Notes under the pieces: model-generated
The model's database searches: none
Seen by the model: the letters and a program-made list of their open reading frames with translations, nothing else
Told to the model about the DNA's origin: nothing
Shown: positions 2,181-62,192 of the stretch, piece by piece
Layout of the letters: each line of letters begins with the position of its first letter
Numbering within the stretch: the stretch's first letter is position 1
Program-made: the position numbers and the translations under genes
Assembly: GCA_964643135.1 (NCBI GenBank)
Contig: CAZXPC010000004.1
Coordinates: 4,716-68,715 of the forward strand
DNA: 64,000 bases
DNA from: an uncultured Candidatus Saccharibacteria bacterium
GTDB taxonomy: Bacteria > Patescibacteriota > Minisyncoccia > UBA6257 > Colwellbacteraceae
Direction: 5' to 3'

Positions 2181-2313
2181 GAGTTAATTATGGACTAATT
2201 GTAGCATGGGTTATATAATCAAATCACTTTCGGGATTATCCCGCGGCCCCGCTAGAAATAGCGGGGAATTCTCTTTATTTTTCCTTCATCTGCGAAGTTG
2301 TAGCATTGAAGTT

Positions 2314-2706
2314 ATGACTCATATAAAAGATTTTGATGGATGGAATGAGAATAAAAAGGAAATTCACAATCGCGTTGATGGGCCATTTTTCCATACTCGT
2401 GAAATATGGTGGTGCTCACTTGGTCTAAATATAGGCTTTGAGCAGGATGGATCAAGCGATGACTATTATCGCCCCGTACTCATATTGAAAGGCTTGGGAA
2501 GATGGACCTGTCTAGCTGTTCCACTGACTACTTCTGCAAGAGATCATAAGTTGCGCCCCTCCATCGGTGTTGTCGAAGGCAAGGAGGATCGTGCTCTTAT
2601 CTCGCAAATCAGAGTTATAGATGCGAAGCGTTTAGTAAGGAAAGTAGGCTATCTTGAAAGCAATATCTTTGAAATCATAAGAAAAACCGTCAAGGATATG
2701 ATCTGA
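2314..2706 (+). CDS. MazF/PemK-family endoribonuclease toxin with N-terminal extension
   Basis: REIWWCSLGLNIGFEQDG...RPVLILKG...QIRVIDAKRL aligns with B. subtilis EndoA/YdcE (GDVYFADLSPVVGSEQGG..RPVLVIQ..QIRTIDKQRL). Start taken at the internal Met at 2314; the ORF track extends to 2206 with no stop. Confidence 0.6.
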   Translation: MTHIKDFDGWNENKKEIHNRVDGPFFHTREIWWCSLGLNIGFEQDGSSDDYYRPVLILKGLGRWTCLAVPLTTSARDHKLRPSIGVVEGKEDRALISQIRVIDAKRLVRKVGYLESNIFEIIRKTVKDMI

Positions 2707-9525: not shown

Positions 9526-10077
9526 TTATCTAGGGTTTTTATAGATCCTGTATTCGATAATTTTCCTGACTACTCCCCTAGAGTTAGCCTTGTCATATTC
9601 CTCATAAACTTTGGCCCCCATTGATTCTGGGATTTTTCGGCTCGCAATATTCTCAGGCATAACTGGATAGCGAAGATAATCATAATTTATGTTGGTATCC
9701 GCCCAATCTTTTAAGGCCGCCATCGTTTCCCGACCATATTTTTTACCGTGGGCTGATTTCTTGATCCAGATGCCGAGCTCCGGAGTTGGGGTATCAACAT
9801 CGTGCAACCCTCCGCAACCGATAAACTCACCCGTTTGTTTATCAGTGATAACTATTTGTAGGTCTTTGCCAGCCGCTAAATCTCTGAGGGAATTATTTAT
9901 AAAGTTATCAGTAACAGATATATCCCCTGAAGGCTGAGGGAACATGTGGGTTGCGATTTCCTCTGTAAATTCACGGAAAATATCCTCGCGATAGATCGGG
10001 GAAATCGGAGCCAAGAGCAAATTAGCGGTTTCGATCCTGGAATCTAATAAGTTGAGTTTTTCTTTCGGGGTTTCCAT
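9526..10077 (-). CDS. GNAT family N-acetyltransferase (RimJ/RimL-like)
   Basis: 183 aa; GNAT motif A region around GCGGLHDV...GIWIKKSAHGKKYGRETMAAL. Confidence 0.65.
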   Translation of the reverse strand: METPKEKLNLLDSRIETANLLLAPISPIYREDIFREFTEEIATHMFPQPSGDISVTDNFINNSLRDLAAGKDLQIVITDKQTGEFIGCGGLHDVDTPTPELGIWIKKSAHGKKYGRETMAALKDWADTNINYDYLRYPVMPENIASRKIPESMGAKVYEEYDKANSRGVVRKIIEYRIYKNPR

Positions 10078-11387: not shown

Positions 11388-11847
11388 TGCTTTCGTGATC
11401 TGGCTTGATCTTGCTGATCTCTGCGTTAATGCCGTCAATTAAGTCGCCCTTGTGGATTTCGGCTAGAATTTTCTTGGTTAATTCCGGCAAATTGTCCAGG
11501 TCTTTGGTCTTGTCTAGAAAAGTTACAGCGCCAAGCTCCTTCGCAAAACTTTCATTTTCGACCGAAACTCCCGGCCAGGGAATAGCGAGGCTTGTCAGAA
11601 ACGCGACGTGGATGTCTTTGAGATCGGGGTCGTTTTTATAATCGAGCAGGGCTTCGGTGCCGTTGATGCCGGGCATGCGGATATCCATCAAAACCAAATC
11701 CGGCTTTATTTTTCGAGCCTTGATAAAAGAAGTTTCGGCGTCGATTGCAGTTTCAACCTGAAAGCCGGCGGCCTCGAGGCGCATTTTGGAAATATCGAGC
11801 AAATCCGGCTCGTCATCAACGACGAGTATCAGCGGGGGCGTGTGCAT
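11377..11847 (-). CDS. Single-domain response regulator receiver (CheY-like)
   Basis: LILVVDDEPD...LVLMDIRMPGINGTE...K receiver signature; no output domain. Confidence 0.8.
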   Translation of the reverse strand: MHTPPLILVVDDEPDLLDISKMRLEAAGFQVETAIDAETSFIKARKIKPDLVLMDIRMPGINGTEALLDYKNDPDLKDIHVAFLTSLAIPWPGVSVENESFAKELGAVTFLDKTKDLDNLPELTKKILAEIHKGDLIDGINAEISKIKPDHESNGQ

Positions 11848-11870: not shown

Positions 11871-12272
11871 TTAGCTAAGCTCCTTCATCAGCCGGCCTAC
11901 GTGGTCGATAATTTTATCCATATCATCGGTTTTTCTAATGTAATCCACCGCGCCTATTTCTTCGGCAAATTTGTTGTCGAGCCAAGCTTGGTTTTCCTTA
12001 GCTTCTCCATAGCTGGTTAGGAAACAAACCTTAGTATCTTTGATATCCGGATCGGTTTTGATTGCGGTTACGGCTTCGACGCCGTTCATGCCCGGCATTT
12101 CCATATCTAAGAGCACCAGATCCGGTTTCTGGGATCTAATCATAGCAATGCCCTCTTCGCCGCCCGAAGCGGTGATAACTTTGTAGCCGGCCGCGCCGAG
12201 TTTCAAAGAAAAAATCTCCCGGAAATCGGCGGTGTCGTCTATGACTAAAATGGTTTTTTGTTGATCGGCCAT
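11871..12272 (-). CDS. Single-domain response regulator receiver (CheY-like)
   Basis: ILVIDDTADF...LVLLDMEMPGMNG...K; no output domain. Confidence 0.8.
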   Translation of the reverse strand: MADQQKTILVIDDTADFREIFSLKLGAAGYKVITASGGEEGIAMIRSQKPDLVLLDMEMPGMNGVEAVTAIKTDPDIKDTKVCFLTSYGEAKENQAWLDNKFAEEIGAVDYIRKTDDMDKIIDHVGRLMKELS

Positions 12273-12339
12273 AATGGAATTGAGTATACGATATATAGTA
12301 TATAGGAAAGTTTAATCAAAAAAAAGTGGAGCGGCGAGG

Positions 12340-12513
12340 GACCTGCTTCTCCCCGCCTCTCCCGCTCCCCGGCCCCTCTCCCTCAGGAACCAGGATAATC
12401 CCGCCTCCAAACTCTCTTCCGCCCCTCGGAACCAGGATATTTTTTCTACTGAAAAAATTCCCTACCGCTCGGCTACCCGCCTCCGCAGTTTCCTCAGAGC
12501 GAAACCGAGTTCT
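12340..12513. repeat. Dispersed intergenic repeat, module I (tandem partial copy plus a full 114-nt copy at 12400-12513)
   Basis: 12400-12513 is nearly identical to the reverse complement of 47757-47870 and related to 47572-47635; a shorter direct copy of the ggaaccaggata core lies at 12370-12399. Confidence 0.8.
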
Positions 12514-12569
12514 CGGCTCTGTAGAGGGAGCTTAGAGTAGTAGGAAGAACCTCCAAACTACTCTGAGGA

Positions 12570-12697
12570 GCCTCTCGGAGACGCGTAGGCGTCGAGAAGA
12601 AGAAAATCTAGCAAGATTTATCTGTGGTGACGAAGGGTAGTTTGGGGTTCTGACACGGGAGAGTGGCAAGAGGGATGATATAGCTGGGGGCGCAGAT
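12570..12697. repeat. Dispersed intergenic repeat, module IV
   Basis: Shares gcgtaggcg.cgag...gaagaaaat...gatgatatagctgggggcgc with 52250-52364; the 20-mer gatgatatagctgggggcgc is identical at 12674-12693 and 52345-52364. Confidence 0.65.
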
Positions 12698-14526
12698 CAG
12701 GCTAGCGGCAGAGAGAAGCTGAAGGTTGAGCCTTGGCCTTCAGCGGACTCCACGTAGATCGTGCCGTTCATTTTCTCGATGATTTGCTTCACGATAAAGA
12801 GGCCGAGGCCGGTGCCGCTGATATTGGCTGTGTCTTTGGTCGCGACTCGGTAGAATTTGGTGAAAAGCTTAGCCTGAGCATCCTTCGAGATTCCTAAGCC
12901 GTGATCTTTGATATGAGTCACGAGATTCTTTTCGGTCGTTTCGTGGCTAATCTCAATCGAACCATTACCGACCGTGTACTTAATAGCGTTGCCGATTAAA
13001 TTGACGAGCACTTCGCGGACGCGGCCATTGTCGGCCATGACAGCCGGGGTGGGCGTAAGCGGTGTGTAGACCATCTTGATCCCCTTCTCATCGGCCAAAG
13101 GTTTCAGCTCGCTCAATGTTTCATTTACAACCGGGACAATATCGGTTTTAACCACATCCACTTTGATTTTCCCGGCATCTGACCGGGCCACTTCGAGCAA
13201 ATCTTCAACAAGCCTGATGAGGCGCGCGTTGGCATTCAAAACTTTGGTGATGAATCCTTTGACTTGGTCGGAGACCGGTCCGGCCAGGCCGTCGTTGATG
13301 ATAGACAAGTAGCCCTTAATCGCCGCAACTGGAGTTTTAAGCTCGTGCGCAGCGATGAAAACGAATTCGTCTTTCAAGGCCTGCAATTGCTTGAGGCCCT
13401 CGGTCATTTTGTTGAAGGCGAGCCCCAAGTCTTCGATTTCGTCCCCGGTTTTGATAGTAACCGGCTCATCGAACTTGCCTTTAGCAACGGCTTCGGTGCC
13501 GGCTTCGAGCTGCTGGATCGGACCGACAATTTTATTGGTCAGTAAAACGCTTAAAAGCAAAACGAGAACAAAAACGATCAAAGAAAATATTATGATCTGC
13601 ACTTCCAGCGCAACCAACACTGAATCGGCGTCGGCGCTCGGCCATTCGGCCACTATGCCCCAACCCAAGCCGGTGATATTTGTGCCGGCGGCGATAACCG
13701 GGAGGCCGTTCAAGCTGACATATCTTTGAGTGCGCGCCGTCGAGAGGGATCCCCGGCCGGAGAGAATGTCTTGCGTGATCGGCGAACTACTCAAATTGTC
13801 CGGCAAGTCGCCGGCCCTCAGGCCTTTGCCGATCACGCGGCCGCTTTGATCAAAAATATAAACATAGCCTGTTTTGCCGAGGGCGGCGCTCTGCGCAATT
13901 CGATTCACGGCGGTTAAATTCAATTCAGCGCTCAAAATAGAAATGGCGCAATTGGCTGCGTTCCGGACCGGAGCCGCAATCGTGACCGCGGGGCCGCTGG
14001 CGTTAAAATAGACCGGCCCGATGTAGTCATAATTTTGATTGCCGGCTTCGCTCTTGCAGTTATCCGCACCTGCAAGCGCGGCGGAAACTTTTTTAAAACT
14101 TTCTAAGTTGCTTTCATCGCGCAACTCGGGAGTTTGGCCCAACTTTTGATAGGCCCGGCTGACTCGCGAGATTTCGCGGCCGGTATTAATGTCTATAAAA
14201 GAGGCTTCCTCGATGGCAGAATTGGCATCGATAAGTTGATTCAAGAGAATGCCTCTGGTTTCAGCGGTGAATTCTTTGTCCAGGTCGCTCACGGTCACGA
14301 CGAGTTCGAGATTGCGTTTGGTCTCATCGATGAACCGGTTCACCTCCTGTATTTTCTCGCTGATTAAGTTACTTTCGATCGAGGCGACGCTCTCGTTGTG
14401 CGACTGAGTCACAAAATAAAGGGCGAACAAGCCAGCCAAGATAACGGGCAAGACGCCTATGCCGAGCATCATTAAGAGGATTTTTTTGTGCAACCGGCCG
14501 CCTAACTTGAAAGACTTTTTATCCAT
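12697..14526 (-). CDS. Sensor histidine kinase with periplasmic sensor domain and HAMP
   Basis: 609 aa; N-terminal TM, large extracytoplasmic domain, second TM, HAMP (NKIVGPIQQLEAGTEAVAKGKFD), HisKA (AAHELKTPVAAIKGY), HATPase_c (GTGLGLFIVKQIIEKMNGTIYVES). Confidence 0.85.
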   Translation of the reverse strand: MDKKSFKLGGRLHKKILLMMLGIGVLPVILAGLFALYFVTQSHNESVASIESNLISEKIQEVNRFIDETKRNLELVVTVSDLDKEFTAETRGILLNQLIDANSAIEEASFIDINTGREISRVSRAYQKLGQTPELRDESNLESFKKVSAALAGADNCKSEAGNQNYDYIGPVYFNASGPAVTIAAPVRNAANCAISILSAELNLTAVNRIAQSAALGKTGYVYIFDQSGRVIGKGLRAGDLPDNLSSSPITQDILSGRGSLSTARTQRYVSLNGLPVIAAGTNITGLGWGIVAEWPSADADSVLVALEVQIIIFSLIVFVLVLLLSVLLTNKIVGPIQQLEAGTEAVAKGKFDEPVTIKTGDEIEDLGLAFNKMTEGLKQLQALKDEFVFIAAHELKTPVAAIKGYLSIINDGLAGPVSDQVKGFITKVLNANARLIRLVEDLLEVARSDAGKIKVDVVKTDIVPVVNETLSELKPLADEKGIKMVYTPLTPTPAVMADNGRVREVLVNLIGNAIKYTVGNGSIEISHETTEKNLVTHIKDHGLGISKDAQAKLFTKFYRVATKDTANISGTGLGLFIVKQIIEKMNGTIYVESAEGQGSTFSFSLPLA

Positions 14527-35493: not shown

Positions 35494-35862
35494 TTATTTG
35501 GTGCCGAGCTTTTTGGTTGAAGATATAAAATTGTTTAATTTAACTCCTAGGTTTTGCATCTCAAGATACAATTGCGAATAAGCTGGATCTTTTACGAAGC
35601 CACGGTCTTTGAGTGTCTCGAGCCAGTGCATAGCCTCGATCAATGAACCACGAGCATTGTAATTGAATTTATTGCGATCCAGATAATGAAAACGGCCGAA
35701 TCCTTCGGCTATGTTAGCCCCGACAGAATCGACGGATCTTATAAATTGATCACCTATTATGCTTTTCGTTTTATAGTCAAACACTGTATAGATCTTCCAG
35801 CTTTTTGCCGAAACACCGCAGGCTAGCTGATAAACCTCTAAATCTTTTAAATCCATAATCAT
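35494..35862 (-). CDS. Four-helix-bundle protein (TIGR02436; 23S rRNA intervening-sequence protein family)
   Basis: DLEVYQLA...DQFIRSVDSVGANIAEGFGRFHY...GSLIEAMHWLE matches the family consensus. Confidence 0.75.
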   Translation of the reverse strand: MIMDLKDLEVYQLACGVSAKSWKIYTVFDYKTKSIIGDQFIRSVDSVGANIAEGFGRFHYLDRNKFNYNARGSLIEAMHWLETLKDRGFVKDPAYSQLYLEMQNLGVKLNNFISSTKKLGTK

Positions 35863-37136: not shown

Positions 37137-38432
37137 TTAGATGTTGTGGATCATGCAACCAAGGATCGTCCCAGCACCCGGGTCGGCAGAGAAGGTAGCT
37201 GTTAAGGTGTCTGCAGTTGGTACAACCTTGTTCAAGCTGACAGAGTTAGCTGAGGCGTCTAGTGAACAGGCCACTACTGCCGTTGACCTTAAACCAGTCA
37301 TAGTGAACGCGTTTGAAGTGGCGCCACCGCCGTAAGTCGTGCTGCGGATCATTGCAAACTGGTTCTGAATCAATGAAGTGGTAGCTGGAGGGGAAGTCGG
37401 GGTAAGAACAAGGGCTCCTGTACCGTACTGGATTGTTGTTTTAGATGTAGTGTTAGATGAACCAAGAACGATTGTCTGAACAGCTGCGCCAGTACCGATC
37501 TGGATACCGTGGGCAGTTGCGCCGTTACCGATCAAGATAGCGCCAGCTGCAGTACCACCTTCTAAGGTAAGCGTTGAGCTTGCGTGAGCAGAACCAACGG
37601 CAACAAGGTCAGCGCCGGTTGCGTCAGCGCCAACGTTGATAGTTGTTGTTTTTGCAACAGCATCGTTACCAACGTTCAAGTTTCCTGTACCAGCGTTGAT
37701 GGTGGTAGCAGAAGTTGAATTGGTTGAGCCGAGAACAACAGTGTTTACGGCTGCGCCAGTACCGATCTGGATACCGTGGGCAGTTGCGCCGTTACCGATC
37801 AAGATAGCGCCAGCTGCAGTACCACCTTCTAAGGTAAGCGTTGAGCTTGCGTGAGCAGAACCAACGGCAACAAGGTCAGCGCCGGTTGCGTCAGCGCCAA
37901 CGTTGATAGTTGTTGTTTTTGCAACAGCATCGTTACCAACGTTCAAGTTTCCTGTACCAGCGTTGATGGTGGTAGCAGAAGTTGAATTGGTTGAGCCGAG
38001 AACAACAGTGTTTACGGCTGCGCCTGAACCAATGCTTATTGTTTTTGCAGTAGCACCGTTACCGATCGAGATACCGCCAGTGTTTGCGGCACCGATTGAA
38101 ATGGTTGATGATGTTGCGTTGTCGAACAATGTGTTAGCGCCCCCGGTGACTGCGCCGTTGTAGGTAGTGGCACCGGTTGCGGTAGCGTTACCAAGCGTTA
38201 ATGTGCCCGTGGTCAAAGCGCCGCCCATCAAGATGTTCGATGCGGCTGCGGCTTCGAGGGTTAAGGCTCCGCTGCTGGTTGCTGTTAATGCGCCAAAAGT
38301 CAAAGTTGCTGAAGCTCCGTTGACTCCGACTACTCCGACCATCAAGGACAGTACGCCCAAGATGAGTCCTAATTTTGTTAATTTGTTTTTAATCATTTTT
38401 GTAAAATTTGTAATTGTTTTTTGGGGAATCAA
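37137..38432 (-). CDS. Secreted Ala/Thr/Gly-rich repeat protein (adhesin-like) containing a perfect tandem duplication
   Basis: Signal peptide; an 89-aa unit (…GSTNSTSATTINAGTGNLNVGNDAVAKTTTINVGADATGADLVAVGSAHASSTLTLEGGTAAGAILIGNGATAHGIQIGTGAAV…) occurs twice identically, then a third diverged copy. Confidence 0.7.
   Translation of the reverse strand: MIPQKTITNFTKMIKNKLTKLGLILGVLSLMVGVVGVNGASATLTFGALTATSSGALTLEAAAASNILMGGALTTGTLTLGNATATGATTYNGAVTGGANTLFDNATSSTISIGAANTGGISIGNGATAKTISIGSGAAVNTVVLGSTNSTSATTINAGTGNLNVGNDAVAKTTTINVGADATGADLVAVGSAHASSTLTLEGGTAAGAILIGNGATAHGIQIGTGAAVNTVVLGSTNSTSATTINAGTGNLNVGNDAVAKTTTINVGADATGADLVAVGSAHASSTLTLEGGTAAGAILIGNGATAHGIQIGTGAAVQTIVLGSSNTTSKTTIQYGTGALVLTPTSPPATTSLIQNQFAMIRSTTYGGGATSNAFTMTGLRSTAVVACSLDASANSVSLNKVVPTADTLTATFSADPGAGTILGCMIHNI
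37483..38016. repeat. Perfect 267-bp direct tandem duplication (2 copies) inside the adhesin-like gene
   Basis: Identical antisense ORFs at 37636 and 37903 are offset by exactly 267 nt; the sequence is nucleotide-identical across both units. Confidence 0.85.
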
Positions 38433-38684
38433 ATTCTTATATCTTCGATTTTTGTTTTTTGGAGTAAACCGACCTTAAGATGTTTTACTCTAAAAAAACA
38501 AATGTTTAATCGAGTCTAAAAATTTGAGGTTTATAATTTTATACTTTTCCTTCTTATGATTATCACGAGCTTCTAGACGGCTCACGAGAATCTGCGACCT
38601 TTCCATAAACCGCATTTTGCGGATTGCAATTATTATAACATAGCAAGGCTTCGGGTGCTGAAAGATCAAACTGTGGATATCTTC

Positions 38685-38820
38685 CCGCCTCCGAAATCCG
38701 ATCTACCCTTCAGGGCACAGCATAAATCTCTGCTGAGATTTTGCTTTCCGCTCACCCGCCTACGCGGGCTTCCGCGAATCCCTTCAGAATAGATTCGGAT
38801 TTCTCGGCTATGCTAAGGAG
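38685..38820. repeat. Dispersed intergenic repeat, module II (hairpin/TIR element) containing module III
   Basis: Termini cccgcctccgaaatccgatctaccc ... agattcggatttctcggctatgctaaggag are mutually inverted and homologous to the termini of 52031-52223; interior 38731-38787 is homologous to 47668-47727. Confidence 0.75.
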
Positions 38821-38889
38821 TGTGTTGTGAAAATTGCAATCGACGCAAAGGGTCACAATATAAAACGTCTCTTCGGGTAGAAAATTACA

Positions 38890-38940: not shown

Positions 38941-40011
38941 TTAAATCAGGTCGTTGACCTTGGCGCGGGTTAGCGGGCCAAAGTTGCCATAGCCCGGCGA
39001 ATTAATACTCGTAACAATGCCATACTTTATCTGGAACCGGCCGACGGCGGCTCTGGTACGGAGGCCGAAGTAGCCTGTAACCAAGCCTTCGGGGTAAATA
39101 TCTTTGCCCTGGTTCTTGAGGAACATTTGGAGCCGGCTGACCTCGATGCCGGTTGAACCGAGCGATAGTGACTTCAAGAAAAGGATGCCGACCATGATAT
39201 TGCCGCTTGGATTTCCACTCGTATCAATACTGCTACTCAACCCGGGCGGGATCGGCATAGGTGACGGCATTGACGTCGGAGCCGGGGTAGGGCTTGGAGC
39301 GGCTGGCGGAACATATGAATAGTCGAGCGTAACTGTCGCTGAAGCTAACGGGGAAAGATTGTGGGCGGCGTCCCTAAATTGAGCGTAGACAGTTTTCGAA
39401 CCGCTGCCGGAAGAAAGAACCCAATTTCTGGTCGAAGCGAAAGACTCCCAAGACATACCGTAGAAATCCGGAGCGGAGCCAATAATCATTTCGGTCGCGC
39501 CGGTTGCGGCAAGACCGAGAGTAACACTGGTAGAGTTTACCACTGTCGCTCCGTTATTAATCGAGACAGAAACATTGGTCGGGGCATATTGATCAACCGG
39601 ACTGGTACTGTAAGAAGTGCTTTTTATCGGCGCGGTATAAAAGCTCCATGAATAGGGCAGGCCGGAAAGGGCTACTCCTTCGGCGGAGTTCGCCGCAGAA
39701 ATGGTCGCCATATATTGGGCGCTCAGATGGCTGTAGCTACTATGAGCCAAGCTAACTGTTTTGGAATCGGTCCAAGTGGCGGTGTAATTTTCTGGAGGAT
39801 TGGTCGAGAAAACCAAGGAAGATGGATTCATAATCTCGGAAAAGGTTATGACGATCGGATCGAGAGTATTCTGATGAGTTGAATTATTGGCCGGGTAGAC
39901 GCTCACAACATATGGCGTGTTAGCTGCTTTGACCGACGAAGAGCCGATAACTAAAAAGGAGGCCACTGCAAACACTCCAGTGAAATGCTTTATAATATTA
40001 AGTTTTGTCAT
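38941..40011 (-). CDS. Secreted surface protein with C-terminal PG_binding_1 domain
   Basis: Signal peptide after MTKLNIIKHF (start chosen at 40011; ORF track extends to 40053); Pro-rich PAAPSPTPAPTSMPSPMP linker; C-terminal GSTGIEVSRLQMFLKNQGKDIYPEGLVTGYFGLRTRAAVGRFQ. Confidence 0.6.
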   Translation of the reverse strand: MTKLNIIKHFTGVFAVASFLVIGSSSVKAANTPYVVSVYPANNSTHQNTLDPIVITFSEIMNPSSLVFSTNPPENYTATWTDSKTVSLAHSSYSHLSAQYMATISAANSAEGVALSGLPYSWSFYTAPIKSTSYSTSPVDQYAPTNVSVSINNGATVVNSTSVTLGLAATGATEMIIGSAPDFYGMSWESFASTRNWVLSSGSGSKTVYAQFRDAAHNLSPLASATVTLDYSYVPPAAPSPTPAPTSMPSPMPIPPGLSSSIDTSGNPSGNIMVGILFLKSLSLGSTGIEVSRLQMFLKNQGKDIYPEGLVTGYFGLRTRAAVGRFQIKYGIVTSINSPGYGNFGPLTRAKVNDLI

Positions 40012-40119
40012 AATGTAGAAAATTATATCACATTCGCGCAAAACAAAAACCACCCGTTTTTAGGCGGGTGGAATTTGTTTGATTTAGAAAGTCTCAAGTC
40101 AATCTAAACCAGTATCTGC

Positions 40120-47178: not shown

Positions 47179-47568
47179 ATGAACTACATCAATATCGGTA
47201 TCCTTATTACAGCCATTTTGTCGACAGTTTTTGTGCTGATTCAGGACCGCGGTTCGGAAGGCGGGGCATTTACCTCCGGCGACATGGGCGGCTTTTACCA
47301 GAAAAGGCGCGGTATGGAAAAGACTATTTTCATTATGACCGTCTTATCGATTGCCTCTTTTGCCGGTTTCTCGCTTCTCAGAATCACTCACTTGGGCAAC
47401 GTTGCACCGGCGCCAATCAGCGCCAACCCGATCGAGATTAAGACTGATAACCCGAATGTTAAGGTCACGACGACTCCTGTTCCGCCCGGAACAACTGCGC
47501 CCGCCCCTGCGCCAACAACTCCAACACCAGCTCCGGCACCGGCCCCTGCTCCAGCGCCTGCTAAATAA
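47179..47568 (+). CDS. secG: Preprotein translocase subunit SecG with Pro/Ala/Thr-rich C-terminal tail
   Basis: VLIQDRGSEGGAFTSGDMGGFYQKRRGMEKTIFIMT matches the SecG core (LLQ.GKG....G.......RRG.E..L); second TM; tail APAPAPTTPTPAPAPAPAPAPAK. Confidence 0.65.
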   Translation: MNYINIGILITAILSTVFVLIQDRGSEGGAFTSGDMGGFYQKRRGMEKTIFIMTVLSIASFAGFSLLRITHLGNVAPAPISANPIEIKTDNPNVKVTTTPVPPGTTAPAPAPTTPTPAPAPAPAPAPAK

Positions 47569-47571
47569 ACC

Positions 47572-47870
47572 CCCGCCTCCGAATCTGCCTCTGCCCCTCG
47601 GAACCACAGGTGATCTCTACTGAAACTCGCCCTCCCTCATCCCACTCCGGGAAACACAATAATTTCTTGCTAGAAATTTTGTTTTTGCTCACCCGTCTTC
47701 ACGGGCTTGCGCAGATTCCCTTCATGGAACAAGGTCGGGCTAGTCTACATAGCCAAAGAACTCGGTTTCGCTCTGAGGAAACTGCGGAGGCGGGTAGCCG
47801 AGCGGTAGGGAATTTTTTCAGTAGAAAAAATATCCTGGTTCCGAGGGGCGGAAGCGAGTTCGGAGGCGGG
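47572..47870. repeat. MITE-like element: 37-nt terminal inverted repeats (module I) flanking an internal module III
   Basis: 47572-47608 (cccgcctccgaatctgcctctgcccctcggaacca) vs reverse complement of 47834-47870 (cccgcctccgaactcgcttccgcccctcggaaccagg); 47757-47870 is about 95% identical to reverse complement of 12400-12513; interior 47668-47727 homologous to 38731-38787. Confidence 0.8.
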
Positions 47871-47905
47871 TTCTCTAAATAAGAACTTTGAGATAAAATA
47901 CTATA

Positions 47906-49504
47906 ATGCGGATCAAAAAAATCTTTACTTCTCTAAACAAAACCGAGGCAATGGTCCTGATAGGAGCCTTCCTCATCTTTGTCCTCTCGGCATCTATTAA
48001 AGTGGCTTTATATGTTGAGTCGAATACCAGGATTGTTCCCGCTAAGGGCGGCGAGCTGAGGGAGGGAATGCTCGGCCAGCCGGTTTTTATCAGCCCGGTT
48101 ATCCCGACGACCAACACCGACCGGGAACTATCGAAGCTCGTTTTCGGAACGCTTGACGACATTGCTGACAGCATCACGCATTCCGGCGATGCGGCTGACG
48201 GAAAGACCTGGAACGTCAGAATTAAGCAGGGAGTTCTTTGGCAAGACGGCAAACCGGTAACTTCCGACGACGTGATTTTCACGCTCGGAGTAATCCAAGA
48301 CAAAGCCAACAACTCGCCTCTTTTTAGTTCGTTCCAGGGAATCACAGCAGAAAGGGTGAGTGAACTCGAGGTCAAGTTCACCCTACAGTCGGCCTACGCC
48401 CTTTTCGACGAGGAGAACCTGAAGAGCCTCGGCCTTATTCCCCAGCACCTCTTTTCCGACTCGGAGATCCAAAATGCGATTAAGCTTTCGGTCTATGGAC
48501 TGAAGCCGATCGGATTCGGACCATACCAGGTAGACTCGTATGACAAGGATGACCGCGGTTTTATCAGCGCTTTGTATTTGAGCTCAAACTCAACTTACTT
48601 TAGGGGCGAGCCGAATATTTCAAAATTTACAGTTAAATTTTATAAGAACGACGCCGATTTGATTAATGCTTATAAGAGAGCGCAGATCGATGCTTTCGGG
48701 TTGGGAAACGCTGCCCCGCTTTTGACGAACCGAGACGGCGGCCTTAAAGACAGCTTGGACATCAGGCATAATCTTTATAACTTAAAGTATTCTGGCTACT
48801 ATGCTCTCTTTATCAACCAAATTTACGACGATAAGAATATTCAGAACATTAAAGTGCGCGAGGCGCTGGCTAAGTCTTTGGACGTTAATAAGATTACGCG
48901 AGATATCTTGGGCGACTACGCGACTCCCCTCTATGGCCCGGTAAGCTCAACTCTGAAAGACCCGGCTACCTTCGACGCCAGCATATTGAGCGGCTTGAAA
49001 GTGACTATAACCTTGCCTGATCAGGACTTTTTGGTAAAAACGGCCGGTGAAATCAAAGCGGCCTGGGAAGCCGCCGGAGTTGAAGTTACTCTTAATACTC
49101 TGCCGCTCGATAAAATCCAAGACGCCATTAAGAAAACCGACTACGAAATAATTCTATTCGGCAACGTGACCGGCCCGTCCGGAGACTTGTTTTCGTTCTG
49201 GCATTCATCGCAAAGATTTTACCCGGGCAACAATTTATCTCTCTATCAAAATAAGAAAGTGGATAATTTGATCGAATCTTTCGGCAAGGATTTTGATGCC
49301 GATAGCCGGACCGCTGACTTGAAGCAAATAAGCGACATAATCGCGGCTGACTACCCGGCGATTTTCCTGTATTCTCCGCAATATATTTACGTGGCCGCGC
49401 CGAGCCTGCGCGGAATCGACCCGAACCTGACTGTCAGTAACTCATACGACCGTTTCCTTAATGTTGAGAAGTGGTACCTCAGGACGAGCCGGGTGTTTAG
49501 ATAG
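47906..49504 (+). CDS. ABC transporter substrate-binding protein (peptide/nickel family 5)
   Basis: 532 aa; N-terminal TM/signal anchor; size and motifs of the SBP_bac_5 family. Confidence 0.65.
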   Translation: MRIKKIFTSLNKTEAMVLIGAFLIFVLSASIKVALYVESNTRIVPAKGGELREGMLGQPVFISPVIPTTNTDRELSKLVFGTLDDIADSITHSGDAADGKTWNVRIKQGVLWQDGKPVTSDDVIFTLGVIQDKANNSPLFSSFQGITAERVSELEVKFTLQSAYALFDEENLKSLGLIPQHLFSDSEIQNAIKLSVYGLKPIGFGPYQVDSYDKDDRGFISALYLSSNSTYFRGEPNISKFTVKFYKNDADLINAYKRAQIDAFGLGNAAPLLTNRDGGLKDSLDIRHNLYNLKYSGYYALFINQIYDDKNIQNIKVREALAKSLDVNKITRDILGDYATPLYGPVSSTLKDPATFDASILSGLKVTITLPDQDFLVKTAGEIKAAWEAAGVEVTLNTLPLDKIQDAIKKTDYEIILFGNVTGPSGDLFSFWHSSQRFYPGNNLSLYQNKKVDNLIESFGKDFDADSRTADLKQISDIIAADYPAIFLYSPQYIYVAAPSLRGIDPNLTVSNSYDRFLNVEKWYLRTSRVFR

Positions 49505-52027: not shown

Positions 52028-52030
52028 TCA

Positions 52031-52223
52031 TCCGCCTTCGAAATCCGAATCTACCTTTCGCTTAGCTCTCTCCTCGTCGAGGTGCTTCCAAGCTGTCTCG
52101 GGAGACCGCTCACGGCCGCTTGGCCTAGGGGTTTAGTCTCCCTGCGACAGCTTGCGCGCCAACTCGGGGGAGCTAGAGCTCAGGATAGATTTCGGATTTC
52201 TCTCGGCTATGTAGAGCTAAGAG
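52031..52223. repeat. Dispersed intergenic repeat, module II (hairpin/TIR element) containing module V
   Basis: Termini tccgccttcgaaatccgaatctacc ... gatagatttcggatttctctcggctatgtagagctaagag are mutually inverted and homologous to 38685-38820; contains the 22-mer at 52146-52167 shared with 44371-44392. Confidence 0.75.
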
Positions 52224-52249
52224 CCGTAAACCATAGCCCCGCAGGGAAC

Positions 52250-52364
52250 ATCGCGCAGGAGCGTAGGCGACGAGCGCGAAGAAAATTTTGAGCACAAAAT
52301 TATTCTGTTTCCCGAGGAGGCTGTGGTTGGAGGCTCGGGGTGGAGATGATATAGCTGGGGGCGC
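52250..52364. repeat. Dispersed intergenic repeat, module IV
   Basis: Homologous to 12570-12697 including the identical 20-mer gatgatatagctgggggcgc. Confidence 0.65.
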
Positions 52365-52431
52365 GGAGCTCATCACCCGAAAAAGAAAAAGGCCCGCTGA
52401 GAGATGTGAATCTATCGTCGGGTTTTGTCGT

Positions 52432-53690: not shown

Positions 53691-56600
53691 TTATAGCTTT
53701 TTGAGGCCGATCCAAACGTCTTCGCCGCTGATTTTGGTTTCGGAAAGGGCGGTGAATTTGTCGGTTTTCTTGTAATGGATGGCAGCGGTGCCGGTGTTGC
53801 TCTTAAGAGCATCGAGGTGGGCTTCGATCGCGGCTTGGATATTTTCGGAAGCCTCGATATAAAGCTCGATCTTGTCGCTCGGCTTCAGATCGGCATCTTG
53901 GCGGAGGGCTTGGACGGCGCGGTTAAGTTCGCGCATGGCGCCTTCGCGTTTTAGATCTTCGGTCAGGTTGGTGTCTAAAATAATTTCTTCCTTAGCGCCT
54001 TTGTCGAAGATCACTTTCTTAACATTAATCTCATCGGACAAGACTTCCAGCAGTTCGCCATCAAGGTTTAGGGGGTTATTTCTAATGGTGAGGCTGGCTA
54101 ACGGCTGACGAACTTTGATATTAGCTTCGGCCCGCTTGGCCAAACCGGCGGCGGCCAGGCGGCGAACTTCTTCCATCTTTTTATTTAGATCTTTGTCGAT
54201 AAATTTGGCGTGAACTTCGGGCCAATTGTCGAGGTGGACGGATTTATCGCCCGCGGCCATGGATTTGTAGAGCGCATCGGCAAAAAAGGGCGCGAAGGGA
54301 GCAATCATTTTCGAGATTTCGAAAATCACAAAAAGCAGAGTTTTAACCATGTCGTTGCGATCGCGGCTGCGGCGGATATACCAGCGCGAGAGGTCGTCGA
54401 CCAGGCTTTCCAGCGAGCGGGCGGCGAGGCCGATTTCATACTTATCCAGGCTATCGGTAGCAAATTGGACGGTTTCGCTGAGGCGGGACAAAATCCACTT
54501 ATCTAAAACGTGGTTAGGGTGCGGGTGCTCGGGCACGGGGTTGGGCGTGTGTTCAAGCGTTTCGGAAAAGAGATATGAGTTGTAGAGAATGCCGAAAAAC
54601 CTACGTGAAACTTTGCCGAGATCGGCTTCGTCAAAATCTTTATTCTCACCGGGCGGATTAACAGTATAGAAATACCAGCGGATGACGTCGGCGCCGTATT
54701 TATTGATCATTTCCCACGGATCGACGATATTGCCCTTTGATTTAGACATTTTTTGGCCGAATTTATCGTGGATTAGGCCAAGCGAGATCACGTTTTTGTA
54801 AACTTCTTTCCGGCCGAGAATGACACCCACCGCGAGCAGAGTGTAGAACCAGCCGCGGGTTTGATCCATGCCTTCGCTGATATAATCCGCCGGGAAACCG
54901 ACGCCGATCTTGTCGATCAGATCTTTATTTTCGAACGGATAGTGGACCGAGGCAAAAGGCATGGCGCCGGAATCAAACCAGACATCAGCCACGTCGGGGA
55001 TGCGCTCCATGCGTACCATTTTCCTAGAGTTCTTTTTGCCTTTATTCTTTGGTATACATTTCTCGCACTTCAAATGGACCCGGTCAATATAGGGGCGGTG
55101 AAGGTCAACTTTGCCGACCTTGTTGTATGAAATATTTTTGAAAATGATCTCGCGCCACTCGCCCGGCTGGAGCGGAACCACTGCCATGGAATCTTCGTTA
55201 GAAAGATTCTTCACGGCGGCCTCGAGCATCCAGAGAGGATCGCCGTGGCTTACAATCAAAATAGTTTTGCCTTCATGGGCTGAATCTACTTCATCCAAGA
55301 ATTGGAAAACCCTCTCTTTTACTTGGGTCAGAGTTTCCCCGCCTGAAGGGGCCTTAAGGAATTTCTCGGTAACGTTGTCGAAAAAGCTGTTATATTCTTT
55401 GGAAGTTTTCCAGTTGAAAATACCGGCATTGATTTCGCCCAAACGCTTGTCCTCGATAACCTTGGCGCTGATAGTTTTGCTCAATATTTTGACCGTCTCT
55501 TTAGCGCGAGCGAAAGGCGAAACGTAGATGAGGTCGATTTTTTCTTTTTTGAGGGCTTTCGCGGCAGCATCGGCGGCAGCCTTGCCTTCTTTGGTTAAGT
55601 GAGAAATTTTGCCCTTGGTTTCGGGGCCGGAAGCCATAACATCTTTAACATTATGTTCGGCTCCGCCGTGGCGCATCAGAATAAAGCGGTTGTTTTGAAC
55701 GGCGCTGGACTCAAGGTCGGCCAGGCTTTCTACAACCTTCACGTGGCCTTCTTTACACTGCCAGATCGGCAGAGGGGTGGCCCAATATCTTTCGCGCGAG
55801 ATAGCCCAATCTTTAGCTTCTTTGATCCATTCGCCGAACCGGCCGGTTTTGATTGAAGCGGGAATCCAGTTGACCTTATTATTAGCGGCCATCAATTTGT
55901 CACGCAAAGTCGACATAGCGATAAACCACGAATCCATGGCGTAATAAAGAAGCGGGGTCGAACAGCGCCAGCAAAAAGGATATTCGTGGGTATAAGGTTC
56001 GGTTTTGACTAGGAAATTTTCTTTGTCGAGATGATCGAAGATGCGCGATTCGGTGTCTTTCGCTTTGGCGTAAAAACCGCCGAGCTTGGGCACGTCTTTA
56101 ATGAAGAGGCCGGACTTCTCAACGGTGTGATGCTGAGGAAGCCCTAGCTTTTTGCCTAAGTTGTAGTCGTCTTCACCATACATGACGGCCGTGTGGACCA
56201 CTCCGGTGCCGTCGGTTGTCGTTACAAAATCAGCCGGGTAGACATGATAAGCTTTTTTGGCTGTTTGGCTTTTTTGCTGGAAGGGCTTAATGTCCCAAAG
56301 CGGCTCGTAAGCCAGGCCAACCAAATCTTTGCCTGTTAAAACGCCTATTTCTTTGCCTTTGGTGGTCTTAGCAAGAGGCATGTCGTGGAAATAGACGCCC
56401 TCTTTGTCGTGGATATCCTTGGCGATAATCCAATATTCCGGCTCGCCCGACCGACTGGCACCGCCGACTTTGTGTTCGATCGTGACATATTTGATCTTCT
56501 CCCCAACCGCCAAAGCCACGTTGCCCGGCAAGGTCCAAGGAGTTGTAGTCCACGAGAGAATATAAACATTACCGTTGGCTTTTAAATCTTTAGAAATTTT

Positions 56601-57263
56601 CTGACCTTTTTTGACGCGAAATTTGATATAGACCGAGGCGTCGGTTGTCTCTTTATAACCCTGGGCGATTTCGTGAGAAGAAAGCGCGGTACCGCAGCGC
56701 GTACACCAAGGCACAATTTTGTGGCCTTTATAGAGCAGTTTCTTTTGCCAAGCCTGGGCTAAGATCCACCAAAGCGATTCGATATATGTTTTTTTATAAG
56801 TAACGTAAGGATTTTTAAGATCAACCCAGTAGCCGGTGCGCTCGGTCATCCGCTCCCACTCGTCTTTATACTGCCAAACCGATTCTTTGCAGCGCTGATT
56901 GAATTCGGCAATGCCGTATTTTTCGATATCTTTTTTAGACTTGAAGCCGAGCGCTTTTTCAACTGCTATTTCCACCGGCAGGCCGTGAGTATCCCAGCCG
57001 GCTTTGCGGGGCACGTAATAACCCTTCATCGATTTATAACGGGGAATGATGTCTTTATAGCTTCGGGAGAGCATGTGGTGAAGGCCAGGCGAACCGTTGG
57101 CAGTCGGCGGGCCTTCCCAAAAGTTAAATATCTTAGGCGCTTCCTCCCCCTTCATCTGCCTTCGTTGGGCGAGAGATTTTTCGAAAATATTATATTTTTT
57201 CCAAAAGTCGAGAACTTTTTCTTCGAGATTGGGGAGATTGAATTCTTTTATGTTCTTCAGCAT
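53691..57263 (-). CDS. ileS: Isoleucine--tRNA ligase carrying an inserted histidine-phosphatase (PGAM-like) domain
   Basis: Class I motifs PPTANGSPGLHHMLS (HIGH) and KMSKSKGN; editing domain; zinc-knuckle CWRC/CEKC. Residues about 526-700 (nt about 55164-55688) contain RHGGAEHN ... LIVSHGDPLWML, the two catalytic-His motifs of the phosphoglycerate-mutase / histidine-phosphatase superfamily, inserted between IWQCKEGH and DLHRPYID. Confidence 0.85.
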   Translation of the reverse strand: MLKNIKEFNLPNLEEKVLDFWKKYNIFEKSLAQRRQMKGEEAPKIFNFWEGPPTANGSPGLHHMLSRSYKDIIPRYKSMKGYYVPRKAGWDTHGLPVEIAVEKALGFKSKKDIEKYGIAEFNQRCKESVWQYKDEWERMTERTGYWVDLKNPYVTYKKTYIESLWWILAQAWQKKLLYKGHKIVPWCTRCGTALSSHEIAQGYKETTDASVYIKFRVKKGQKISKDLKANGNVYILSWTTTPWTLPGNVALAVGEKIKYVTIEHKVGGASRSGEPEYWIIAKDIHDKEGVYFHDMPLAKTTKGKEIGVLTGKDLVGLAYEPLWDIKPFQQKSQTAKKAYHVYPADFVTTTDGTGVVHTAVMYGEDDYNLGKKLGLPQHHTVEKSGLFIKDVPKLGGFYAKAKDTESRIFDHLDKENFLVKTEPYTHEYPFCWRCSTPLLYYAMDSWFIAMSTLRDKLMAANNKVNWIPASIKTGRFGEWIKEAKDWAISRERYWATPLPIWQCKEGHVKVVESLADLESSAVQNNRFILMRHGGAEHNVKDVMASGPETKGKISHLTKEGKAAADAAAKALKKEKIDLIYVSPFARAKETVKILSKTISAKVIEDKRLGEINAGIFNWKTSKEYNSFFDNVTEKFLKAPSGGETLTQVKERVFQFLDEVDSAHEGKTILIVSHGDPLWMLEAAVKNLSNEDSMAVVPLQPGEWREIIFKNISYNKVGKVDLHRPYIDRVHLKCEKCIPKNKGKKNSRKMVRMERIPDVADVWFDSGAMPFASVHYPFENKDLIDKIGVGFPADYISEGMDQTRGWFYTLLAVGVILGRKEVYKNVISLGLIHDKFGQKMSKSKGNIVDPWEMINKYGADVIRWYFYTVNPPGENKDFDEADLGKVSRRFFGILYNSYLFSETLEHTPNPVPEHPHPNHVLDKWILSRLSETVQFATDSLDKYEIGLAARSLESLVDDLSRWYIRRSRDRNDMVKTLLFVIFEISKMIAPFAPFFADALYKSMAAGDKSVHLDNWPEVHAKFIDKDLNKKMEEVRRLAAAGLAKRAEANIKVRQPLASLTIRNNPLNLDGELLEVLSDEINVKKVIFDKGAKEEIILDTNLTEDLKREGAMRELNRAVQALRQDADLKPSDKIELYIEASENIQAAIEAHLDALKSNTGTAAIHYKKTDKFTALSETKISGEDVWIGLKKL

Positions 57264-57529: not shown

Positions 57530-58537
57530 TTAACCGAGCCTGTTACGGACGGCGACGCAGACGAAGTCGCCCGAGACAAACTCTTCGACGGTGATCGTAT
57601 CGAGGTGGAGAACCTCGCCGTGGAAGGTTGCCTTGACTAGGGAGTCTCGGCCGTTCGCGCGGACTTCTTCGATCGCGCTTACGTAGGGCTTGCCTTCTTC
57701 AACCAGGCCGGCTTGCTTGGCCTCTCGGAGGATCACTCCAAAGGCCACGATGCGGGCCGGCTTCTGCTTCAAGAGCTCCATTCTCTTCATCACATCTCCG
57801 GGCAATTGCCCCTTGGAAGAGAGAGTGATGTTGCCCACGATGTCCGTTTTCAACGGGCCGCCGAGCCGGTCGAGGAGGTGGCGCACGATCGGCTCTGCGG
57901 TAACTAGGCCGCCGAACATTTCGCCGAGCTTGAGGCTCCCGCCGGGAATGGTGACCAAGATCTCGGTCGGAACCTGGACCCGGTTCGGGTTGGCGTGATG
58001 CTCCACCATCTTCGGCGCGTTGCCGTTCGGCTCGTTCCGCTTGTTCCAATCCAGCCAGTTGCCATGCTGACGTCCGGTTCCGATACCAACAGCCGGATCG
58101 TCTGAGATGGGCGGAACTTTCGGACCGGTCTTCTTCACAGGCGGGAAAGATGCGATCCTCCTGCCCCTCGGAGGAGGTGGCGGGGGCCTGAGAGATCTCG
58201 CGTCGACGTGGCTCTCATCCCAGAGACGCTCCGATACGATGGGCGATAGCCCAGGATCAGGCGGCTTAGGCTCCACGACCGGCGCGGACTCAGGTTCCGG
58301 AGCCGGCGGCAGAGGGGGCGGTTCCGCCTCCACTGCGACAGCTTTCGGTTCTGGCGGGATCGCGGCCGGCTTCGGGACAACGGGCTTCAGAGGAGACGGC
58401 TTCGCGAGGCCCTTCTCGATCAATGCATCGAGGGCCTTGTTCACTTCGGGACATGAGATCCTCTCTTCGCTCATCAAGCGGCCGAGTGTGTACATCTTGT
58501 CGAAGTATTCTCGTTGCTTAACTATGTCGAACGTCAA
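57530..58537 (-). CDS. Pro-rich hypothetical protein, GC-rich (about 60%)
   Basis: 335 aa; central PPxP-rich region; strong third-position G/C bias unlike its neighbours. Confidence 0.5.
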   Translation of the reverse strand: MTFDIVKQREYFDKMYTLGRLMSEERISCPEVNKALDALIEKGLAKPSPLKPVVPKPAAIPPEPKAVAVEAEPPPLPPAPEPESAPVVEPKPPDPGLSPIVSERLWDESHVDARSLRPPPPPPRGRRIASFPPVKKTGPKVPPISDDPAVGIGTGRQHGNWLDWNKRNEPNGNAPKMVEHHANPNRVQVPTEILVTIPGGSLKLGEMFGGLVTAEPIVRHLLDRLGGPLKTDIVGNITLSSKGQLPGDVMKRMELLKQKPARIVAFGVILREAKQAGLVEEGKPYVSAIEEVRANGRDSLVKATFHGEVLHLDTITVEEFVSGDFVCVAVRNRLG

Positions 58538-61425: not shown

Positions 61426-61497
61426 CCACGCCGAAGATTAAAGCCATTTTATAAAAATTGATTTTGAATCGGAGCGGGGGTAGGCTGAAATTAGCAT

Positions 61498-62136
61498 ATG
61501 AAGGCGGTTATATTCGATATTGATGGTACGCTCACGCCGGAAATCTCGTGGCTATTTTTGACCGAAGCTCTGGGCGCGTCTAAAAGCGAGCATTTAGAGA
61601 TATTTAACAGCATGAAAGCCGGTGAAATTGACCTGCCCCTGGCAACCAGCCAGTTACTTCGACTATGGCAAGCGAGCGGACAGGCTAATTTGGGAAAACT
61701 TAGAGAAATTTTTGACAAAGTAAGTCTGCGTGAAGGAGCGCTCGAAATCGTGAATTACCTGCGAAGCGAAAATTATAAACTCTGCCTCATCTCCGGTTCG
61801 ATGGGCTTATACGCCGAGACGATTGCTAAAAAGTTAGGGGTTGAAGCGTATTTCAGCAACACCGAGCTGATTTTTGATAAGGCCGGCCAATTAATCAATT
61901 TTAAATATCAGCCGGACCAGGGCGCGATCAAACTAAAACAGCTTATGGAATTTTGCGCGCGCGAAAATATAACGCTCAAGGATTGCGCGGTGATCGGCGA
62001 CAGCGGAAACGATTTGGAAATTTTTAAAGCAACCGGACACGGCATTATTTTGAAGGGCGGCACACCGGAGCCCACCCTCGGGGACGCTGCTTGGAAAAAA
62101 ATAGAGGATTTGGGGGAAATTAAAGCCATTTTATAA
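61498..62136 (+). CDS. HAD-superfamily hydrolase (phosphoserine-phosphatase-like)
   Basis: Motif I FDIDGTLT, motif II ISGS, C-terminal GDSGNDLE. Confidence 0.75.
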   Translation: MKAVIFDIDGTLTPEISWLFLTEALGASKSEHLEIFNSMKAGEIDLPLATSQLLRLWQASGQANLGKLREIFDKVSLREGALEIVNYLRSENYKLCLISGSMGLYAETIAKKLGVEAYFSNTELIFDKAGQLINFKYQPDQGAIKLKQLMEFCARENITLKDCAVIGDSGNDLEIFKATGHGIILKGGTPEPTLGDAAWKKIEDLGEIKAIL

Positions 62137-62192
62137 AAATTGATTTTGGTTCTGCCCGGTAGTACGCTGAAATTAGGATTCGAGGGTTTGAC

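Follow-up and report, generated by a model that had tools for sequence, protein, structure and literature searches.

Two short, nearly identical sequences lie in inverted orientation on either side of a 35-kb block of genes, and the question is what they are and whether they act on the block that they enclose. The window (the whole stretch of DNA that was analysed, 64,000 nt) contains only one inverted repeat of 40 nt or more. In a repeat search of the window, its arms fell at 12400-12513 and 47757-47870, with 35,243 nt between them; once the second arm is reverse-complemented, 112 of the 114 bases agree (98% complementary). The first-pass annotation had described an inverted 114-nt pair of about 95% identity that differs around 'aaactctc' versus 'gaactcgc', and the alignment agrees: the quoted motifs hold exactly the two mismatches, an a/g difference at 12409 and a t/g difference at 12415. 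From 12416 to 12513, 98 nt are identical between the arms without interruption. With blastn the match widens to 127 nt at 96% identity (12400-12525 vs. 47870-47744, E = 1.7e-54), and past it the similarity drops to the level of the repeat family described below. An exact 33-mer of the arm had no match in the genome_contigs or metagenome_contigs collections. We consider it probable that the arms are two copies of one unit, of the kind we call type 1, from a dispersed, lineage-specific family of structured, non-coding intergenic repeats, REP/BIME-like or MITE-like, in a host from the Patescibacteria (Paceibacteria/Minisyncoccia-like).

Arm A lies between the genes for a Cache/HAMP histidine kinase (HK, 12697-14526, minus strand) and a response regulator (RR, 11871-12272, minus strand), and arm B has SecG (47179-47568, plus strand) on one side and the gene for an SBP_bac_5 solute-binding protein (SBP, 47906-49504, plus strand) on the other. 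Each arm points the same way with respect to the genes around it (HK>RR and SecG>SBP), and these two gene pairs are themselves on opposite strands, so the arms are mutually inverted because the same local orientation occurs in oppositely stranded operons. By itself, such a pair is ordinary: repeat copies that happen to fall in oppositely oriented operons. Neither arm contains a credible or conserved ORF, and ARAGORN reported no tRNA in them. Rfam 15 gave no matches in the whole window at the gathering threshold, and a permissive Rfam search (E up to 10) around A and C returned only noise. (We considered whether the stretch GCCGAGCGGU is tRNA-like and dropped this idea given the ARAGORN result and the lack of any Rfam tRNA match even at E = 10.)

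As type-1 units, A and B belong to a family with nine units at five intergenic sites in the window (Table 1). Searches with nhmmer and with a covariance model (CM) built from 18 units gave seven matches, and beyond these and unit D no further units were found in the window. Self-comparison and a profile search showed that weaker, inverted second units adjoin A, B, and D. In general, units sit in short spacers just after stop codons, either solo or as head-to-head pairs. For example, the HK stop codon is directly followed by A2 and A, which occupy the HK-RR spacer; unit C comes about 120 nt past the stop codon of the gene at 38941-40053 (minus strand); and unit E lies between the gene at 57530-58537 (minus strand) and the start of IleRS at 57263. 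An identical 20-mer, GATGATATAGCTGGGGGCGC, follows the type-2 units A2 (12673-12692) and D2 (52347-52366). It has no convincing fold, and it may be a further module of the repeat family.

Table 1. Repeat units, unit fragments, and associated features in the window
Feature	Position	Strand (sense)	Basis or remark
GC-rich hairpin + U8	12318-12367	-	Fold; downstream of A, upstream of RR promoter region
Partial unit fragment (AUUAUCCUGGUUCCUGAGGGAGAGGGG) after A, same orientation	12355-12399	-	Read from sequence
Unit A (type 1), arm 1	12400-12525	-	CM match 12405-12516 (-), 89.7 bits
Unit A2 (type 2), head-to-head with A	12545-12653	+	nhmmer; CM, 70.1 bits
Unit C, solo type 2	38683-38824	-	CM match 38690-38805 (-), 87.7 bits
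CTAAATAA, left 8-bp direct repeat, overlaps SecG stop codon	47561-47568	+	Flanks 306-nt composite 47569-47874
Partial copy, 3' half of type-1 unit	47572-47625	-	blastn self-match
Unit B2 (type 2), head-to-head with B	47627-47742	-	nhmmer; CM, 75.7 bits
Unit B (type 1), arm 2	47744-47870	+	CM match 47754-47865 (+), 94.1 bits
CTAAATAA, right 8-bp direct repeat	47875-47882	+	Flanks composite 47569-47874
Unit D	52028-52223	-	Starts 1 nt past RNase J stop codon
Unit D2 (type 2), head-to-head with D	52219-52335	+	CM, 68.3 bits
Unit E, solo type 2, extended P2	57328-57482	-	CM, 48.8 bits

The units are about 110-150 nt long, and each folds best on one specific strand. A long stem, P1, is locus-specific in sequence and often has symmetric tandem G.A internal loops (CUGARGG opposite CCYUGARGG), and the three-way junction of the unit bears two conserved hairpins, P2 and P3. 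In type-1 units P2, which we term hairpin H, is UGC-GGA-GGC-GGGUA-GCC-GA-GCA; in type-2 units it is CGC-GGA-(5-7 bp stem, GNAG loop)-GA-GCG. P3 is a 7-bp AU-rich stem with a bulge and a loop that is most often AGCA. In unit A, the order is thus a 5' leader (..CUACAGAGCCGAG), P1, hairpin H at 12484-12468 (GGAGGCGGGUAGCCGAG), P3, which is AU-rich, and GGAGGCGGG as the 3' tail (12408-12400).

This fold is conserved with compensatory changes. In a model-based alignment of 20 units, 86% of the cells are paired, as compared to 41-53% if the partners are slid by 1-3 columns; changes occur on both sides in 32 of 35 pairs; and the covariation score is 0.678, which none of 500 shuffles reached, versus at most 0.21 in controls. 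(The alignment was fitted to the model and so leans to the modelled structure; the margin on these figures is nevertheless large.) The fold is also strand-asymmetric through G.U pairs. Of 19 regions that were folded, 18 had the lower energy on the sense strand (−52.8 vs. −30.8 kcal/mol antisense for unit A, and −64.5 vs. −47.5 for unit C), the sense folds contain 91 G.U pairs as compared to 37 for the antisense folds, and the model alignment has 65 G.U cells vs. 28 A.C cells (p = 1.6e-4).

Because the fold is strand-specific and G.U pairs are in excess, we think that selection acts on the single-stranded form of the units. The simplest reading is that this form is RNA, and single-stranded DNA is another. 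Most likely, the units would be co-transcribed in 3' UTRs or intercistronic regions and act there as stable RNA hairpins, which by analogy to REP, ERIC, and Correia elements might be barriers to exonucleases or sites for processing by RNases. As to orientation, solo units between co-directional genes were co-oriented with the genes in three of the informative cases and anti-oriented in two (not significant). The lack of a clear rule weakens the case for a simple role as a 3'-UTR RNA and leaves room for a role as single-stranded DNA. At three syntenic loci the solo units are all on one strand, but this sample is small and its members are not independent.

At the HK-RR site, A2 and A are placed between the HK stop codon (12697-12699) and a GC-rich hairpin with U8, which from its predicted fold would be a terminator-like site. 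Since a unit fragment and then this hairpin come after A on the transcribed strand, A2 and A probably belong to the 3' UTR of HK and not to the leader of RR. A consensus terminator scan listed nothing in the HK-RR or SecG-SBP spacers (nor did it list the GC-rich hairpin), and the consensus promoter scan gave a single weak match, on the plus strand in the HK-RR spacer (12650-12679, 9/12).

The family is also present in related genomes. Among species-representative genomes, the closest relatives of the RNase J are in Minisyncoccia and Saccharibacteria MAGs (59-61% identity), and the named homologs of SBP and HK are from Parcubacteria, Paceibacterota, Colwellbacteria, and similar groups, which places the window in a Patescibacteria (CPR) genome. 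Two contigs, L004 and L017, come from one syntenic relative (GCA_040384205.1; SBP 56% and HK 58% identical). L004 has seven units in 14 kb, including units in the SecG-SBP, RNase J-TrpRS, and upstream-of-IleRS spacers, and L017 has a unit immediately after the HK stop codon, inside which the contig ends. Another relative, L015 (SBP 52% identical), has one unit, in the RNase J-TrpRS spacer. Units occupy corresponding sites even between genomes with proteins that are just 52-58% identical. A fourth contig, L021 (HK 56% identical), ends in sequence that closely resembles the 5' part of unit E; the CM did not report it, and from reading it by eye we take it to be where a unit starts. Units are absent from more distant relatives (L002, L003, L013, L014, L016, and L019).

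We also scanned metagenomes with a 21-mer from the family. Of seven matches, four were real units, with one type-1 unit on each of the contigs L006, L007, L008, and L011. The other three were GC-rich, lacked the fold of the units, and gave only short, low-scoring matches to the model, so we rejected them. A separate scan of viral contigs for hairpin H gave one match, which is apparently in coding sequence and scores only 19 bits; we judged it to be due to chance, and hence the family is not evidently phage-borne.

Some relatives have short spacers without units at the sites of A and B. The SecG-SBP spacer is 337 nt in the window vs. 38 nt in L005 and 20 nt in L014, and in L015 the two genes overlap; at the same site L004 has only a solo type-2 unit, which is 41% identical to B2. 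The HK-RR spacer of L019 is 93 nt and has no unit. Other sequences are found in these spacers as well. In L016 (2700-3340) and L021 (3960-4540), the HK-RR spacer has a non-coding insert of ~550-600 nt. In L016, the insert contains a good promoter of the sigma-70-like kind (TTGACA...TATAGT), ends in a hairpin with a T-run, and matches nothing in Rfam; these inserts may be an undescribed large RNA. L013 has another family of intergenic repeats (9790-10000, 11590-11720, and 12400-12480), in which a G/T-rich part ('GTAGTTCGGGG...') is followed by an AT-rich part ('AATTTCAAATTTT'). Spacer repeats specific to a lineage thus seem to be common in such genomes.

The units have a mosaic arrangement. All five composites (A2/A, B2/B, D/D2, and, in L004, L4_a/a2 and L4_d/d2) are head-to-head and lie after stop codons. 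Four of the five consist of one type-2 and one type-1 unit; the exception is D/D2, in which D2 (type 2) is paired with D, a unit with a replaced core. (The leader, P1, and tail of D are ~90% like those of C, and its interior is an unrelated GC-rich long hairpin of ~130 nt, at 52060-52190, which makes it an example of cargo exchange within the family.) A head-to-head pair resembles an element of ~300 nt, with imperfect terminal inverted repeats that come from the outward 3' ends of the units. At SecG-SBP, the 306-nt composite starts 1 nt past the SecG stop codon, and its 55-nt ends (47572-47625 and 47816-47870) form an imperfect terminal inverted repeat (78% alike) that derives from inverted whole or partial units. 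Solo units do not have terminal repeats. The direct repeat CTAAATAA that flanks this composite would have a chance frequency of 0.0018 in the window for an 8-mer flanking of this kind, although it was noticed post hoc and at 1 of ~5 sites; by inspection, no flanking direct repeat was found at C, D, or A. As a MITE, the family is an ambiguous fit.

The ends of the units are also unusual. In the window, an intact type-1 P2 (GGAGGCGGG-U-AGCCGAG), if divided in two, gives exactly the 5' leader (A)UAGCCGAG and the 3' tail CGGAGGCGGG. The tail GGAGGCGGG is found at 12400-08, 38684-92, 47572-80, and 47862-70, the leader UAGCCGAG at 12512-18, 38803-09, and 52202-08, and the intact hairpin H within the type-1 units at 12468-12484 and 47786-47802. 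Overall, GGAGGCGGG occurs 8 times in the window (0.5 expected), and six of the eight are at the tails of units or in hairpin H. Given these ends, the units resemble segments that run from loop to loop of hairpin H.

Cores and stems also have different histories. Within L004, the cores are 91-95% identical and the P1 stems 44-55% identical; between genomes the cores are only 70-79% identical (79% for D2 and L4_a2, which lie at the same RNase J-TrpRS site). Conversely, A2 and the L004 unit L4_a have a common P1 (75% identical) and different types of core, and the arrangement of a unit followed by a fragment, as for A, recurs after L4_a. Thus, either the cores evolve in concert within a genome or they are the mobile part, while the stems are bound to their loci.

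Putting these features together, we tentatively suggest that the Patescibacteria family is a new structured class, a reading for which we claim no great confidence. The class would be a Y-shaped RNA or single-stranded DNA module in which a core of ~56 nt evolves in concert on locus-specific stems. The ends would be hairpin halves (GGAGGCGGG and UAGCCGAG) that result from loop-to-loop cutting and joining or from copying via a circular intermediate, the module would serve a conserved function, for example in the processing or stability of intercistronic RNA, in genomes that have hardly any non-coding DNA to spare, and A and B would be a fresh product of the process.

A more specific possibility is that the units are cassettes of a mobile system that works at the DNA level with a site-specific recombinase or HUH nuclease. 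Their ends would be the halves of hairpin H cut in its loop, between GGAGGCGGG and UAGCCGAG, and the units would move from loop to loop, possibly as a circular single-stranded intermediate, with cores pasted into locus-specific hairpins. The exact match of tails and leaders to the intact hairpin in the window, the excess of GGAGGCGGG, and the discordant histories of cores and P1 (as for C and D, which share P1 but not their interiors) are all as expected for such cassettes, and a strand asymmetry that tolerates G.T pairs would fit single-stranded DNA. This seems unlikely because neither the window nor the relatives' loci have a gene for an HUH/Y1 transposase or a recombinase, because the match of leader and tail to hairpin H is exact only in this genome and degenerate in L004, and because the metagenomic type-1 units (L006-L008 and L011) do not have half-site ends.

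How did the near-identical pair arise? In the model-based alignment, A and B are 96% identical (93% in P1 and 100% in the core), and they are the only pair of units in which both P1 and the core are near-identical. The next-best pair anywhere is 87% identical, and involves a partial unit, and the best other pair in the window is 58% identical. So, as the first-pass annotation stated, the identity of the pair is far above that of other family members, and recent transposition or gene conversion, which it proposed, is the right kind of explanation for copies that are real, inverted, and far more alike than their kin. We infer that A and B come from one recent, non-reciprocal copying event, in which either a composite (306 nt, with the 8-bp direct repeat) was inserted between SecG and SBP or a whole unit was converted. 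The empty sites in the closest relatives and the CTAAATAA-flanked 306-nt block lean toward a transposition-like insertion at SecG-SBP, but they do not separate it from gene conversion at the level of the unit, which the mosaicism of the family makes possible. As A2 and B2 resemble each other no more than units do in general, either one unit was copied or the composite had another half of different origin. Finally, P1 is perfectly paired in B, while two private changes in A give a G.U pair and a G.A mismatch; this suggests that A has since acquired two substitutions, in the 3' arm of its P1.

The family has features in common with several known systems. Enterobacteria have REP sequences and their mosaic arrays (BIMEs), and REPINs are doublets of REP sequences that are mobilised by RAYT transposases. 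Like these, our units are extragenic, lie mostly just after stop codons, form imperfect hairpins, and have a mosaic arrangement, with two types of unit paired in inverted orientation across short linkers (the five composites). They also seem to act, or to be selected, as single strands, as is the case for REP and BIME, and REPs have been proposed to stabilise the upstream mRNA. However, our units depart from what defines a REP: they are Y-shaped and 110-150 nt long, while REPs are simple palindromes of 20-40 nt. It is also the apical core that is conserved and the stem that is locus-specific, while the stem of a REPIN consists of the conserved REP sequences. The units have no GTAG-type 5' signature and no sequence similarity to REP, and no gene for a RAYT (Y1 transposase) was found in the 64-kb window or in the relatives' loci.

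Like the Correia elements of Neisseria, ERIC/IRU of enterobacteria, and RUP and BOX of pneumococcus, the family consists of non-coding elements of 100-300 nt that are dispersed between genes, with composites that have terminal inverted repeats and, at one site, a flanking direct repeat. Both form long hairpins in transcripts (predicted, in our case) and both break short-read assemblies. In contrast to those families, which have many near-identical copies, most copies here are old and divergent (at most 60% identical in the window); the ends are not the best-conserved part, and it is the cores that evolve in concert and not the stems; and just one site shows a flanking duplication, with no parent insertion sequence known for the family. 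The attC sites of integrons are similar in that structure is conserved more than sequence, in that their function is specific to one single strand, and in that the ends are halves of a hairpin site that joining rebuilds. But our family has no integrase, no cassette ORFs, and no arrays, and its conserved boxes are unrelated to those of attC. What sets it apart from all of these systems is a conserved apical three-way core on variable stems, together with termini that are hairpin halves. We searched the literature and found no description of such elements in Patescibacteria.

We now return to the 35-kb segment. RecA-mediated exchange between the arms might flip it in part of the population, which would re-pair HK with SBP and SecG with RR and change the expression of the enclosed secreted or surface proteins. 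Inverted identity of 98 nt without interruption is in principle enough for occasional RecA-mediated inversion, and because the arms share their orientation relative to local transcription, the inversion would leave every gene co-directional with its new neighbor. To this extent the first-pass annotation, which noted that recombination would invert the segment, is correct, but we see no sign that this occurs or that it serves a purpose. Its statement that the segment carries most of the surface-protein genes is overstated: Pfam does identify several secreted-type proteins (Big_7/fn3, a subtilase, a pilin-like LamG protein, LTD, and three with PG_binding), but the segment also contains genes of core glycolysis and the pentose phosphate pathway (FBA, PfkB, transketolase N and C, RPE, RpiB, and GAPDH), as well as MFS, SpoU, and others.

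The gene order of relatives also argues against a switch. HK>RR is found in L016 (RR 77% and HK 65% identical) and L019, SecG>SBP is found in L004, L005, L013, L014, and L015, and the PG_binding-DeoR block to the left of SecG-SBP is syntenic in L013. As judged by these comparisons, both junctions are ancestral, so that the assembled orientation represents the ancestral gene order. GC skew is positive across both arms, with no break. A programmed invertible segment should have a site-specific recombinase next to it or inside it, and Pfam scans of essentially all ORFs in the window found no recombinase, invertase, or transposase. Also, the arms are ordinary members of their family, whose other members are not placed around blocks of genes. 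An inversion that alters expression therefore seems quite improbable, and any inversion of the 35 kb would be an occasional by-product of homologous recombination instead of a designed switch.

Even less likely is a role of A and B as a common 5' regulatory RNA, such as a riboswitch or leader, for the downstream genes RR and SBP. Both arms are upstream of a gene and in the same orientation, and B ends 36 nt before the first possible start codon of SBP. But A is 128 nt from the start of RR, with the GC hairpin and its U8 in between, members of the family follow many unrelated genes in both orientations, the same genes in relatives have empty spacers, and there is no matching family in Rfam.

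Finally, two readings seem extremely improbable, namely a 35-kb mobile island or composite transposon with the arms as its terminal inverted repeats, and a mis-join of one copy (which the first-pass annotation had named as grounds for rejecting the pair): inverted, near-identical ends do bracket a block that includes secreted proteins, but the gene order is syntenic (FBA...S8-fn3-250aa-HK-unit in L017, fn3-249aa-HK-RR-RR in L019, and PG_binding-DeoR...SecG-SBP in L013), GC content is uniform, there is no transposase in the window, and an independently assembled Logan contig (L001, from SRR8931234) does not differ from the window along the RR gene and the spacer upstream of it, and so reproduces the RR-side junction into the repeat, inside which it stops, as short-read assemblers usually do at repeats.

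Overall, there is no sign that the arms act as an inversion switch, recent copying stands, and the family is a more interesting result than the pair. Genomes of Patescibacteria are ~1 Mb, with very short spacers, and yet this lineage keeps structured repeats of 110-300 nt after several housekeeping genes. If these are elements for RNA processing or stability, they would be relevant to the punctuation of operons in reduced genomes; if the units move, they would represent a rare active non-autonomous element in CPR bacteria. They also have a practical consequence, as they break short-read MAG assemblies: L001, L017, and probably L021 end inside units.

Some other features of the window deserve mention. 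Near unit C, the ORF at 37137-38432 (minus strand; 431 amino acids, no Pfam match) contains two tandem 267-nt copies that are 91% identical (37416-37949), and would encode a protein with internal repeats and unknown function. A direct repeat of 68 nt (82% identical; 61437-61504 and 62119-62186) lies just upstream of two adjacent genes on the plus strand, a HAD hydrolase (61498-62136) and a gene with no Pfam match (62193-62762), and looks like a duplicated promoter or leader region. The gene at 35494-35862 (minus strand), which is among genes for PG_binding and secreted proteins, matches 23S_rRNA_IVP, and its counterpart in L013 has a weak match to the Pfam family bAvd, which we take to be a DGR accessory protein; there is no reverse transcriptase in the window. 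(We considered whether the repeat pair itself could be the TR/VR pair of a DGR and rejected this, as the copies are intergenic, they differ by a/g and t/g, and the window lacks a reverse transcriptase.) In IleRS (53691-57263, minus strand), a His_Phos_1 domain is inserted in the catalytic domain, as is also the case in L004, L013, and L014. Lastly, the ORF at 2206-2706 (plus strand) encodes a PemK/MazF-like toxin domain and, at 166 amino acids, is longer than is typical.
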